A stretch of DNA of 63,798 nt, the filler included, from Collodictyon triciliatum (lineage: Eukaryota), in the NCBI GenBank assembly GCA_043381765.1. It is 6 parts of 6 records of this genome, joined end to end, with 100 filler letters (N's around TTAATTAATTAA, not from the genome) between each part and the next. Parts side by side here need not be neighbours in the genome. Positions count along the whole stretch, not along the records: positions 13,313 to 27,621 come from JBHJMP010001836.1; 5 more parts are not named here. One strand, given 5' to 3'. How positions within the stretch are numbered: position 1 is the stretch's first letter; the number at the start of each line of letters is the position of its first letter. Below are positions 14,897 through 25,013 of this stretch, in pieces. The notes under the pieces were generated by a model, which worked only from the letters and a program-made list of their open reading frames with translations, was not told the DNA's origin and did not search any database. Both the position numbers and the translations under genes were made by a program.

Positions 14897-17800
14897 TTAA
14901 GCTGATGCTTTCTGTCTCCACTCAGTTGCTTTCTCGGTGTCTTTCTCAACACCCCATCCATTCTCATAGCATTCAGCAAGGATGGGCGCCACTATGTGAA
15001 GGTTAGTCGGATGGAAAGTCAAAAGAATCTGTATAACCGACGTCGTCCCTTGTTTTGCTCTTTCAAGTAATATTTCTTTCGGCTCTCTCGAGGCACAGCA
15101 AACAGCATTTAAAAATACAAACTCGTCGTCCTCCATCGTTTGGGACATAAATAGTTCTTTGCTAGATAATATTCTTTCTACGCTTTCGTCGTTTCCAAGT
15201 CGTACTGCTTTTACATAATATTTTAAAGCTTGCTGAAAACTCTGCTCCACTCCTTCACCGAAAAAATATCTATTTCCGAGACCTAGGTAACCTTCCGGTT
15301 GGTTTTGTTCAGCAGCTTTTCTGTACCATTCCACACATAAGGGTAAACTTTTCTCCATATTGATACCGTTTCTTGCAAAAAATCCCATCAGACATTGCGC
15401 TCGAGGATTTCCATTGTCAGCAAACAGCCTTAATTTATGAAAGAGTTCTATGTTTCTCGATAACGAAAACGCATCATAGTAATCGATAACCTTGTTAATA
15501 TCCTTTTCAACACCCCAACCATTTTCATAGCATTCAGCAAGAATGGAAGCAGCCTGTGGATATTTGTATCTTCCATCTTCCTTCATTACAGCCATTTCTT
15601 TCAAAGCATTGAATGCCTCCTTTGAGCCGTGTTGTGCATATTGCCTCAGTTTTTCGATTTTTTCCGCCTTTCCAAACCACTCAATCGCTTTATCGGTGTC
15701 CTTTTCAACACCCCAACCATTTTCATAGCATTCAGCAAGAATGGAAGCAGCCTGTGGATATTTGTATCTCCCATCTTCCCTCTTTACAGCCATTTCTTTC
15801 AAAGCATTGAATGCCTCCTTTGAGCCTTGTTGTGCGAGTTGCTTCAATCCACCAAAGTCTAATGACAATTTCAGTGGTTTTAGCGAGGGCACTCTCCATC
15901 GCACAGCCTTTTCAGCATCCTTCTCAACACTCCATCCATTCTCATAGCACTCAGCCATCATTTGAGCTTGGAAATTGGTGAACTTGCCCTGTTCACAATA
16001 GACAAAAAAGTCCGCATCAAAGGAAGCAGCTCCGATTGAAAGTAGAATGGTTTTGTTGAATTGATTCAATCCTGTGACATTTCTGATTTGGATGCTTCCA
16101 CCTTGCAGCTTTCTTGGGCCGATAATCTGGACTGTCTTTGCATCTTGGATACTGTTGGTATCAATCATGTTCACCGAGTCACTTGTTCTATTGAATACTG
16201 CGATGACTTCATCTGTGCTTTGTTTATTGGCGAGGTATTTTCCTTGGGTGTAGGTCACTTCTGATTTTTGCAGACTGTGTGTTTGGTTTCCTATGAACAC
16301 ATCCCAAATACGTATTTTCTTATCATTACTTCCAGAAATCAACCAATTTTCACCATTCGGTCCTTGAATACTGCAAATGCTATTGACATAGTTTGTATGC
16401 CCTTTAAATGTTTTGATTTGGTTTCCTGTGGCCACATCCCAAATAATTATTGTTTTATCAAAACTTCCAGAAGCCAGCCAATTTTCACCATTCGGTCCTT
16501 GAATACTGCAAACACTACTGACAGCGCCTGTATGACCTTCTAACGTTTTGATTTCCTTTCCCGTGGCTACATCCCAAATAAGTATTGTAGAATCACTGAT
16601 TCCTGAAGCCAGCCAGTTTTCACCATTTGGTCCTTGAATACTACAAATACTTTTGACAGTACTCAAATATACATATAATGTTTTGATTTGGGTTCCTGTA
16701 GATACATCCCAAATACATATTGTTTTATCATTACTGCCAGAAGCCAACCAATTTTCACCATTCGGTCCTTGAATACTACAAACACTGTTGACAGAATCAC
16801 TATGACCTTCTAATTTTTTGATTTGGGTTCCTGTGGCTACATCCCAAATACGCATTGTATCATCACCACTACCAGAAGCCAGCCAATTTTCACCATTCGG
16901 TCCTTGAATACTACAAACGAATTTGATGCCACTTTCATGTCCTTTTATTATTTTAATTTGATTTCCTGTGGCTACATCCCAAATACGTATTGTTTCATCA
17001 TGACTTCCAGAAGCCAACCACTTTTCACCATTCGGTCCTTGGATACTACAAACACTCATGACAGCACTTGTATGACCTTCTAAAATTCTAATTTGGTTTC
17101 CTGTGGCTACATCCCAAATGCGTATGGTTTCATCGCCACTTCCAGAAAGCAACCAATGCTCACCATTTGGTCCTTGGATACTACAAACACTAGTAACTTC
17201 ATGTGTATGACCTTCCAATTTATCATGAGGAATTCCGAATTTCACATTATTCATATTTGCATTATCAAAAACACAATTACTAAGTATCGAATTCGTGAAG
17301 TCAACACCATCCAAGTTGACACCAGTGAGGTTTGCGCCATCAAGGATTGAATTACTGAGATTTGCATGTGGAATTTTGATGTTTGATAAATCCATTCCAC
17401 CAAGCGAAACATTCATGAAATTCAAAACTGTAATTGCATCAGATGCAGCCTTTGATTTGCTTTCATCAGTCTTCGACATGTAGACAATTCTGAATAATGA
17501 TGCAATGATTTGCTCACGATTCCATTCATCATCCAATTTTGCATCATCAAGAGTTTCACTGATGAAATCTTTGACTCTTGTAAACTCGGCAGGTTCTTTG
17601 ATGATTCCGATTTCTTTTGAATGATGTGACAAGTATTCGCATGACTTTAATGTTCTGGGGAGAATCCATCCGAGTTTATCTGCGAATCTGTCTCTCATCT
17701 CAGCCCAGAACGCCACGCCACTTTCATGTAGCCTATTTACTTCGCAGTATTGGTGCACATTCTCACAAGCCACCCAGCAGTCCCAGTTTTTAAAGGATGA

Positions 17801-23800: not shown

Positions 23801-25013
23801 TTGCTGCATGTCACGGAAGGTCGAGGAAAGAAAAACACGGATGACGCGCTCATCAAAGACAATGAGCGGCAATGGTGTCGATGTCACGTATCTTTGTGGA
23901 GCTGGATTCCACTTCTTGTATTGCCTCTCCTTCAGGTCTTCACGAGCAAGCTTCATCTGGTTTGAAAAGGACATGATATTTCATAAAACGGAATGTATTT
24001 GATATGTTTTATTCATTTTTAATTAATTATTAATTACCTTGTCAAGAAGAATGCAAGTGCGGATGAGCACGACAGAGCCTTTTTCTTCCAGACCAAGACC
24101 TGCATCAATATTTAAATTTAATTTAGTTGAGAAACAAATATAAAAATAAAAAAATATCACAAAAAAGATAAACATAAATCAAATTTCAACCATGGAACGG
24201 AAACGGGGCCTTCGCTCTTTCGTAGAGCTTCTTGGCAATATCGTACCTCTCACGACATTTCTTCTACAATTTTAACGATTGGATATTATATTTCGGCATG
24301 GTTCAAAAAATATAAAAAAAAAACCTTAAATATGAAAGATTAAAAGGAGGTGTATTTTGTTACCCCAAGACTTCCCAAATGGCCAACACTTTGTCCAATA
24401 ATATACTGGAGCATTGCGTAGACCAGATCTGTAAGAATATTTACATGTCATTTACCCATACAAAATAAATGGACGATATATGAAAAATTCCAATATTATG
24501 TCCCTTTAAAACAAATAAAGCAAACCAGCGTAACGAGACTGAGAAGCAACAGCCTCATCACGCACATTCAATTTCAGAAACCAATCAACAATAATTTTTT
24601 GATTCTCGTCAACAAGAACCTCCTCCTCAATAGCTTTGTCACTGATATAAATGAAGGGATTAAATACCAATCCACGAAAGAAATAAATTATAAAAATTGT
24701 GAATATCATAAATAAAGCATACGCAAACAAGCGGGAATGGTAGCTTCCCAAGGACTTTCCGGTGACCGCCTCAATCAGTATGGCCATAAAGAACCCGTCC
24801 ATAAAGTCATCACGGATGTTCTTCGCCTTGAGCTCGATTTTTCCCAGGTGGTGGTTCACCCATTCGAGGACAGCCTGTGCTCAGTTGCCAGATTAAGTAA
24901 TCAATCCTGACCAATATATAATATTTCTTGAAGATAGTATTTGTATTTGTGCAGACCTCGTCAATTGTGACAAGGCTGACATTGGCCTCGGTGCTTGTTT
25001 CCGTTGCAGACAT
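14897..25013 (-). CDS. NLR/STAND-like multidomain protein: CH - DUF4062 - NACHT(NPHP3/TEP1-like) - TPR - pentapeptide - 7xWD40 - Sel1
   Basis: CH-like VLEWVNHHL...DDFMDGFFMAILIEAVTGK; DUF4062 IRVFLSSTFRDMQQERD...IDLRWG...LGARYGW...SVTEYE; NACHT HFVG, Walker B LLIDAINQI, WLP, GHPLYL; 42-aa TPR exons; ~3.1-kb intronless last exon 14897-17981. Walker A exon is not found, so the gene may be disrupted. Confidence 0.8.
16274..17218 (-). repeat. Seven tandem 135-nt WD40 coding repeats with high internal identity
   Basis: Unit LEGHxxxVxSVCSIQGPNGExWLASGSxDxTIxIWDVATGxQIKx repeated seven times. Confidence 0.95.
18035..18184. repeat. (TTA)n microsatellite in the intron between the duplicated exons
   Basis: Directly visible; similar (TTA)n tracts at ~50485-50581 and ~56730-56852. 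Confidence 0.95.

Follow-up and report, generated by a model that had tools for sequence, protein, structure and literature searches.

Proteins in which a DUF4062 domain stands before a NACHT NTPase, such as TEP1, NWD1, NWD2 and NPHP3, have only just been tied to NAD+ hydrolysis. According to the accessible part of a recent preprint (10.64898/2026.05.01.722283), DUF4062 is a TIR-like NAD+ hydrolase (NADase) domain, DUF4062 proteins of bacteria act in anti-phage defence, and human TEP1 is NADase-active via E1008, with R908 and R976 contributing; among the purified human proteins TEP1 alone was active there, and NWD1, NWD2 and NPHP3 showed no NADase activity. Almost all knowledge of DUF4062-NACHT proteins comes from animals and bacteria, and the protist branch is distant from both. 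Here we describe a gene of this branch found in a stretch of DNA of 63,798 nucleotides (nt), filler included, from Collodictyon triciliatum (assembly GCA_043381765.1). The whole stretch is called the window below, and all coordinates are positions in it. The gene lies on the minus strand, inside the part that comes from JBHJMP010001836.1 (positions 13,313-27,621).

The gene spans ATG 25013 to TAA 14897 in a phase-checked model of 32 exons. Its predicted product combines a calponin-homology (CH) domain, DUF4062, a NACHT core, TPRs, a helical module, pentapeptide repeats, WD40 repeats and Sel1 repeats. Judged by its predicted domains, the family to which it belongs is a member of the DUF4062-NACHT STAND proteins (animal TEP1, NWD1/NWD2, NPHP3) and is otherwise known only from Diphylleia rotans transcripts. 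Considered as a whole, the locus is probably one multi-exon gene of this small lineage-specific family, and the window copy is most likely a recently disabled paralog or allele, or has been locally mis-assembled, and would not be a working receptor.

The domains of the window gene were scanned exon by exon rather than in the stitched protein, and database homologs were scanned in addition. The helical module, formed by the first 200 residues of a 1038-amino-acid (aa) open reading frame (ORF) at the 3' end of the gene, has four matches among 1.84 billion representatives. The three long ones are ORFs from Trinity-assembled Diphylleia rotans transcripts in EukProt, and in all three of them TPRs precede the module and WD40 repeats follow it in one ORF. 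Among the Diphylleia ORFs, P0002 (2619 aa) is 49% identical to model residues 18-1300, the alignment continuing through the WD40 repeats, and P0006 is 42% identical to the model over the N-terminal 1300 residues. Both contain, in one frame, CH-DUF4062-NACHT-TPR-module-pentapeptide-WD40 and one Sel1-like repeat, and since the same order is found there in a single frame, the architecture is not an artefact of stitching. All five WD40-bearing Diphylleia relatives (P0001, P0002, P0003, P0006 and P0008) end in one Sel1-like repeat, and the TPR_12, TPR_10 and TPR_NPHP3 profiles match in the relatives. P0001, P0003 and P0008 begin inside or after the NACHT region and may be 5'-truncated assemblies.

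A wider search yielded 45 homologs. Those from outside Diphylleia combine DUF4062 and NACHT with either TPRs (NPHP3-like) or WD40 repeats (named TEP1, NWD1), at 23-29% identity and with a single short local alignment reaching 35%. Of the 45, P0002 and P0006 alone extend over the CH part of the query, and TPRs are combined with WD40 repeats in Diphylleia proteins only (among the matches listed, Pfam). By these alignments the predicted domain order is real and conserved, and it characterizes a small family with five related Diphylleia ORFs, not this locus alone. The initial annotation had listed the domains in this order as an architecture not recognized from any described protein. All of the listed domains are present, in the order seen in Diphylleia, except that the NACHT core is without its Walker A motif. 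No published description of the architecture was found, the supplements of the DUF4062 preprint, which may list protist architectures, being outside the coverage; still, the architecture is shared with the Diphylleia family and hence is not unique.

A further Diphylleia rotans protein, P0007 (2314 aa), is a paralog without CH or WD40, following the plan DUF4062-NACHT-TPR. It begins with MGCGSS (MGxxxS), a possible N-myristoylation signal, and this N-terminus is one that we take to resemble that of NPHP3; P0007 may be the NPHP3 counterpart in Diphylleia rotans.

The gene model was curated by hand from ATG 25013, using reading frames, GT..AG sites and spliced joints in contigs. The contigs, from three public runs, were mapped to 18185-26500 only, with the 1038-aa ORF and the (AAT)n junction outside the mapped region. 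They are mostly 90-99% like the window and therefore come from close relatives or paralogs, not certainly from this locus; the three runs contain 7-10% of sampled words of the window. The window is AT-rich (G+C fraction, GC, mostly 0.33-0.40), and around the locus there are numerous short minus-strand ORF pieces with AT-rich gaps between them, which gives the appearance of a eukaryotic gene with short introns. The features of the 5' half of the gene are as follows.

About 25034-25033, minus strand: acceptor of an intron in the 5' untranslated region (5'UTR), placed by loose contig ends at 25034
24957-25013, minus strand: exon 1 with the start codon (ATG 25013-25011), by ORF and phase check
24364-24874, minus strand: CH domain, exons 2-4 (24874-24723, 24641-24526, 24428-24364), by Pfam and P0002
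24038-24263, minus strand: linker from CH to DUF4062, exons 5-6 (24263-24191, 24099-24038), frame checked
23244-23956, minus strand: DUF4062, exons 7-9 (23956-23766, 23676-23586, 23489-23244), by Pfam, P0002 and the TEP1 structure match
22578-23146, minus strand: end of the TIR-like domain and pre-NACHT linker, exons 10-12 (23146-23012, 22905-22768, 22676-22578), by joints, phases and the alignment with P0002 and P0006
22500-22577, minus strand: 78-nt intron in place of the Walker A (P-loop) exon of relatives, by alignment gap, tblastn and motif scan
20448-22499, minus strand: rest of the NACHT core and following helical domains, exons 13-22, by Pfam, the P0002 alignment and joints

Of the 15 joints listed out of 61, 13 fit canonical GT..AG sites to within 3 nt. 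In particular, intron 24722-24642 is observed as a joint next to exon 2, which is covered by contigs of all three runs, and introns 24363-24264, 24190-24100 and 24037-23957 are likewise observed as GT..AG joints. The model has 31 introns, 30 of them 70-174 nt long and one of 216 nt. Contig-versus-window differences (40 of 253) all fall inside model exons, 22 being synonymous and 18 non-synonymous; this location and the synonymous bias indicate that the predicted exon map is supported and that the family is likely under purifying selection. The loose ends at 25034 in the relatives' contigs, in our own reading, contain an in-frame TAG upstream, and thus 25013 is the first usable ATG and the start codon. 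No second copy of the gene was found elsewhere in the window (tblastn, E 1e-3, no row outside the locus), and an Rfam search of the window gave no match.

Upstream of the start codon, contigs of runs X1 and X2 also cover 25384-25660, differing from the window at 8-13 sites in every ~140 nt; this stretch may be a 5'UTR exon of the gene or part of a neighbouring transcript. At 21144 and other sites in 18185-25013, up to eight distinct contigs of one run share the same difference from the window, which hints at several paralogs or alleles in the organisms of those runs.

For both N-terminal domains the profile scores of the window exons lie below the Pfam cut-offs, and those of P0002, obtained with its N-terminal 1068 residues, lie above them. 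Exon 2 alone matches CH (PF00307) with 21.2 bits (E 3.5e-4, profile positions 7-49 of 109), and the aligned region of P0002 with 43.1 bits (positions 8-90; cut-off 26). For DUF4062 (PF13271), one window exon gives 23.7 bits on profile positions 46-72 and another 21.4 bits on the non-overlapping positions 1-18, while P0002 scores 42.6 bits, the cut-off being 24.7. The CH and DUF4062 assignments of the initial annotation thus hold in the homolog, while the single window exons remain sub-threshold.

The DUF4062 region of P0002 matches the TIR-like crystal chain of human TEP1 (11gz_A, E 1.7e-16), which, together with the NADase activity reported in the accessible part of the preprint, bears out the initial description of DUF4062 as a TIR-like domain placed before NACHT in TEP1, NPHP3 and NWD proteins. 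The window DUF4062 retains the motifs STFRD, GARYGW and SVTEYE. The TEP1 residues R908, R976 and E1008, numbered as in the accessible part of that source, map to the Arg of STFRD, the Arg of xRYG and the second Glu of TExE, and all three are kept in the window; the mapping uses an inferred offset of 893 for chain 11gz_A, which fits all three numbered residues.

In the NACHT core, the Walker B motif (hhhhD) is present in exon 16 (22020-21867), aligned to that motif in P0002, P0006 and P0007, and the same exon matches the Pfam NACHT profile with 16.3 bits (profile positions 81-128, cut-off 26.7). More distant homologs carry precomputed PF05729 (NACHT) annotation. The Walker A motif GxxGxGK[ST] is present in P0002 and P0006 and absent from the gene model. 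In the alignment, P0002 and P0006 have ~31 extra residues at this place, including a conserved GxGKS-type P-loop, where the window is gapped. No P-loop-coding sequence was found in the window: tblastn reached no better than E 0.30, at another place in it, and scanning 20000-25100 for the motif gave nothing. Contigs of run X2 have extra letters at loose ends 22501 and 22577, exactly the intron edges, and in our own translation these letters encode the start and the P-loop end of the missing exon.

This absence has consequences for splicing. The end of exon 12, at 22578, is in phase 0, and exon 13, starting from 22499, requires 1 nt of the preceding exon. The 78-nt intron between them has a consensus donor and a strong canonical acceptor (score 10.5). 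If the two exons are spliced canonically, the frame shifts, four more codons are read and a stop follows at codon 480; the sole in-frame alternative acceptor, 22483, is poor (score -4.2). The continuous frame that the initial annotation had obtained by stitching the exons is therefore not what canonical splicing yields. With a placeholder for the lost exon, 2368 codons are open. As everything downstream is open, the loss is recent, or allelic, or an assembly fault. The window copy, as assembled, cannot be one with a working NACHT switch, since its P-loop exon is missing, and it is probably unable to make the full protein.

The 3' half of the gene is marked by a tandem duplication, and its features are the following.

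18757-20338, minus strand: exons 23-30, a helical exon pair and then six TPR exons of 42 aa (126 or 123 nt), the TPRs all in phase 2, by exon table and Pfam
18198-18668, minus strand: exon 31, 471 nt or 157 codons, in frame, a duplication product
18668-18349, minus strand: copy of the module exon (~320 nt) within exon 31
18348-18323, minus strand: 26-nt junction within exon 31
18323-18198, minus strand: diverged TPR-exon copy within exon 31
17982-18197, minus strand: proposed 216-nt intron, a duplicated copy of intron 18756-18669, with donor GTAATAAG and acceptor ..AATAG
14897-17981, minus strand: exon 32, body of the 1038-aa ORF, stop TAA 14899-14897, by Pfam, Tandem Repeats Finder (TRF) and AlphaFold2
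~17981-17400, minus strand: all-helical module, by AlphaFold2
~17392-17228, minus strand: pentapeptide beta-helix, by Pfam and AlphaFold2
~17221-16282, minus strand: seven WD40 blades, then a disordered linker, by Pfam and AlphaFold2
~15990-14900, minus strand: Sel1 repeats, by Pfam

TPR_12 matches are found in five of the six single TPR exons (E 5.5e-7 to 1.7e-3), one reaching the cut-off of 30.1 bits and four others scoring 18.9-27.9 bits. The last TPR exon is 18882-18757, with a GC donor at 18756. The intron following it begins with GC instead of GT (18755-18756), and this is where the relatives' contigs splice; an alternative GT 9 nt downstream of this donor would add three in-frame codons.

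Exon 31 consists largely of copies of its neighbours. Its first part repeats the module exon (blastn: 18671-18349 against 17984-17662, 325 nt aligned, 82.5% identity, with the acceptor AG within the copy), and the two module copies have 75 of 114 residues identical. Its tail of 126 nt aligns ungapped and in register with the last TPR exon, 61 of the 126 nt being identical (shuffles 32.4 +/- 4.9, maximum 50, n=2000), with a BLOSUM score of 32 against -38.5 +/- 13.4, which none of 2000 shuffles reaches; 32-43 nt match in the comparisons with the other five TPR exons. The tail has an exon-like GC of 0.41 (0.14-0.24 in eight sampled introns) and runs up to a GT whose phase is that of the donor following the last TPR exon. 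The copies of the TPR exon, in register, and of the module together imply that the duplication took in the last TPR exon, the intron behind it and the 5' portion of the module exon. Homology of the 50-codon tail to the sequence after module copy 2 or to Diphylleia proteins was considered and rejected, the protein scores being at shuffle level and the DNA score 22 against 18.1 +/- 2.4.

The 216-nt intron has its donor where, by homology, that of the last TPR exon lies, and the phases of the two agree; the duplicated intron opens with the in-frame TAA TAA (G|TAATAAG). Inside this intron lies an (AAT)50 microsatellite (18034-18184; 50.3 copies by TRF, read on the gene strand, 100% matches, no indels), whose purity suggests recent expansion. 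That both the stop and the microsatellite fall inside a putative duplicated intron favours one gene over two, and the accessible part of an earlier report (PMC3265369) provides a precedent for a duplication yielding a working intron. Membership of the 1038-aa ORF in the same gene, as proposed in the initial annotation, is thus most likely, given the TPR-exon duplication, the in-phase donor and the homologs, though the splice scores of the 216-nt intron are mediocre. Other possible outcomes are a product of 2211 aa, if exon 31 is skipped, and one of 1341 aa, if translation ends at the TAA. Reassignment or read-through of TAA TAA was rejected, as the gene's own terminal stop is TAA and the repeat would be read as 50 isoleucines.

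Exon 32 has the strongest profile matches of the gene, all above the Pfam cut-offs: WD40 (E 4.6e-59, 194.8 bits), Sel1 (122-133.5 bits, six stretches) and pentapeptide repeats (37.7 bits, cut-off 20.2). TRF finds 6.9 copies of 135 nt in this exon. The seven WD40 blades have a mean pairwise identity of 69% (range 53-84%), with variation clustered at few positions. The AlphaFold2 model of the long exon (mean predicted local distance difference test, pLDDT, 73.4; predicted template modelling score, pTM, 0.47) consists of 11 helices (residues 3-199), a beta-helix (~208-262), a seven-blade propeller (273-571, pLDDT 85-96), a disordered linker and helical repeats (651-850), in this order. The part following the module gives local scores of 267-293 with Diphylleia proteins (shuffles about 30 +/- 5), and when the long exon is aligned to five Diphylleia proteins, invariant columns are found all the way through the first Sel1-like repeat. 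Scanning metagenomes for the helical module produced 67 pattern matches, none of them confirmed.

For the family, a mechanism may be proposed on the model of APAF-1, TEP1 and the DUF4062 systems of bacteria. The TIR-like NADase domain DUF4062 would be the likely output and the NACHT NTPase the switch, kept off by the repeat region (TPR, module, pentapeptide, WD40 and Sel1) until a ligand binds. Ligand binding would then lead to oligomerisation, bringing the TIR-like domains together and causing NAD+ hydrolysis. An immune role of the family is likewise putative. In the window copy, a deletion presumably removed the Walker A exon together with flanking intron sequence, leaving a single 78-nt intron, and the strong canonical acceptor would impose the frameshift, so that the product would consist of CH and DUF4062 only. 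Moreover, the tandem duplication would have added an in-frame exon of 157 codons as well as a further intron, in which (AAT)50 then grew.

At the family level it is reasonable to speak of an NLR-like STAND protein with a predicted TIR-like effector. The NLR-like receptor of the initial annotation survives in this sense, as a STAND plan; no LRR family was found in the window pieces or in P0002 (among the best 25 Pfam matches), so it is not a strict NLR, and the copy itself is without a P-loop. The non-self sensing that the initial annotation proposed, and the tethering to or guarding of the actin cytoskeleton by CH, are hypothetical. A bolder version, which we regard as improbable, would make this a cell-autonomous immune or death sensor family of a deep-branching protist lineage (CRuMs), a CH-TIR-like NADase-NACHT protein read out by four repeat sensors. 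The locus would then encode a P-loop-less regulator or decoy, or a free 479-aa CH-TIR-like NADase, and would exemplify exon and intron birth by one tandem duplication.

It is unlikely that the duplication and the microsatellite have split the locus into two genes, one for CH-DUF4062-NACHT-TPR ending at TAA 18196-18194 (1341 aa with the placeholder) and one for module-pentapeptide-WD40-Sel1 from ATG 18013 (1038 aa). The in-frame TAA TAA would fit such a split, as would the ATG 11 codons upstream of the proposed acceptor, the gap of 216 nt, longer than any of the other 30 introns and with mediocre splice scores, and the Diphylleia ORFs starting inside or after NACHT, which may nevertheless be truncated. 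However, the module follows TPRs in the same ORF in each of the three long database matches, and what precedes the stop is a TPR exon copied in register, with a donor exactly at 18197 and in the right phase. The GC of exon 31 is exon-like, and its 157 codons are open, the chance of no stop in 50 non-homologous-looking codons being ~0.03 by our own estimate for such a base composition. Quite improbable, too, is an intact working receptor of ~2400 aa with a complete NACHT, the missing P-loop exon being an artefact of assembly or haplotype. Over ~2368 codons the remaining exons are all open and able to splice, the relatives' contigs, 90-95% alike, possess the P-loop exon, and the differences are biased towards synonymous ones (22 of 40; 40 of 253 differences), all of which an intact receptor would explain; yet a clean GT..AG intron of normal size occupies the place of the P-loop, 63.8 kb contain no P-loop coding sequence, and the analyses made gave no sign of mis-assembly.

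The function of the family may also be read differently, namely as a cytoskeleton- or flagellum-associated scaffold like the ciliary NPHP3 or the vault protein TEP1, with CH binding actin or microtubules and the repeats serving as protein-binding platforms. We hold this possible but doubtful. Collodictyonids are flagellates, the nearest named relatives are of the NPHP3 and TEP1 types, the NPHP3_N and TPR_NPHP3 profiles match Diphylleia homologs, and the paralog P0007, with its MGxxxS start and no WD40, has an NPHP3-like plan. On the other hand, the WD40 blades are 69% identical to each other and vary at few positions, several divergent paralogs exist in one species, and the locus has undergone repeat expansion and rearrangement; such mutually similar repeats, divergent paralogs and repeat rearrangement are typical of fungal and animal NLR-like receptors. 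Activity of DUF4062 in bacterial phage defence, described in the accessible part of the preprint (10.64898/2026.05.01.722283), also speaks against a scaffold.

The explanation that we prefer, a single gene of a TIR-like-effector STAND family with a disabled or mis-assembled window copy, has several observations weighing against it. The splice position weight matrix scores of the 216-nt intron (donor 3.5, acceptor 1.1) are low within the range of the other 30 introns, and 44 of 165 GT and 48 of 205 AG decoys in the long ORF score as high. The ratio of non-synonymous to synonymous rates (dN/dS) between the module copies, 0.53, is a sign of weak constraint. P0002 itself falls just under the cut-offs for NACHT (25.4 against 26.7), nSTAND1 (24.6 against 27.1) and NPHP3_N (23.1 against 24.8). 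Downstream of the lost exon, ~1890 codons in 20 exons are free of stops, with splice sites kept, which is unexpected for an old pseudogene and would be accounted for by a loss that happened very recently, by an artefact of the assembly or haplotype, or by a downstream start. Among the contigs mapped, all to 18185-26500, none identical to the locus is shown across the P-loop or the 216-nt-intron junction; most are 90-95% alike and so come from relatives or paralogs. Finally, since NWD1, NWD2 and NPHP3 were inactive in vitro according to the accessible part of the preprint, conserved residues are not proof of activity.

Outside the gene, positions 3980-5800 on the minus strand form a GC-rich (0.62) low-complexity stretch amid the AT-rich window, with long ORFs full of dipeptide repeats. 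These ORFs contain a zinc-finger-like motif, C-x2-C ... TPxWRxGP, which we take to be GATA-type, and the stretch probably represents the gene of a GATA transcription factor in which repeats have expanded.

By joining the same core to CH and to a TPR-pentapeptide-WD40-Sel1 stack, the family widens the known architectures of DUF4062-NACHT proteins and is compact enough for asking what the repeats sense. Moreover, the locus is a natural example of how genes change, combining repeat duplication, in-frame copying of an exon and an intron, microsatellite growth in the new intron and loss of a nucleotide-binding exon. For annotation it is a warning, as a gene caller would give two genes or one truncated gene here.

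Compared with described systems, the gene shares with bacterial DUF4062 proteins (Swarozyc) and STAND/NLR-like NTPases a TIR-like NADase effector released by a sensor part; in Swarozyc, compared here by description only and from the accessible part of the source, DUF4062 is joined to an auxiliary domain and not to NACHT and repeats. TEP1 and NWD1/NWD2 resemble it in having DUF4062 directly before NACHT, followed by WD40 propellers, and are 25-28% identical to P0002 over 67-77% of residues 190-1000. The likeness is closest in the TIR-like domain of TEP1, where the P0002 match is accompanied by conservation of the catalytic Glu and two Arg defined in the accessible part of the preprint. The TROVE/vWA part of TEP1 is absent from the window gene, while CH, the TPR array, pentapeptide and Sel1 repeats are absent from TEP1 and NWD1/2 (among the matches listed, Pfam). 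Proteins of the NPHP3 type share DUF4062, a NACHT-like core and 42-residue TPRs (TPR_12/TPR_10), and the NPHP3_N and TPR_NPHP3 profiles match homologs of the gene; they end after the TPRs, whereas the window gene adds the module, pentapeptide, WD40 and Sel1 repeats and the CH N-terminus.

Fungal NACHT-WD40 STAND proteins (HET-E/NWD type), likened here by architecture and not by sequence, have a NACHT switch with WD40 repeats that are highly similar and differ at few positions, and the WD40 repeats of the window gene are alike in the same manner; the fungal proteins carry other effector domains and do not stack TPR, WD40 and Sel1 repeats. The Diphylleia ORFs come nearest, as they follow the order of the window gene from CH through DUF4062, NACHT, TPR, helical module, pentapeptide and WD40 to a Sel1-like end. 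They differ in possessing the Walker A loop and in having the module, as well as the Sel1-like repeat at the end, only once, with ~14 WD40 repeats in P0002, whereas the window copy is without Walker A, has the module and a TPR exon duplicated, and ends in ~6 Sel1 repeats.

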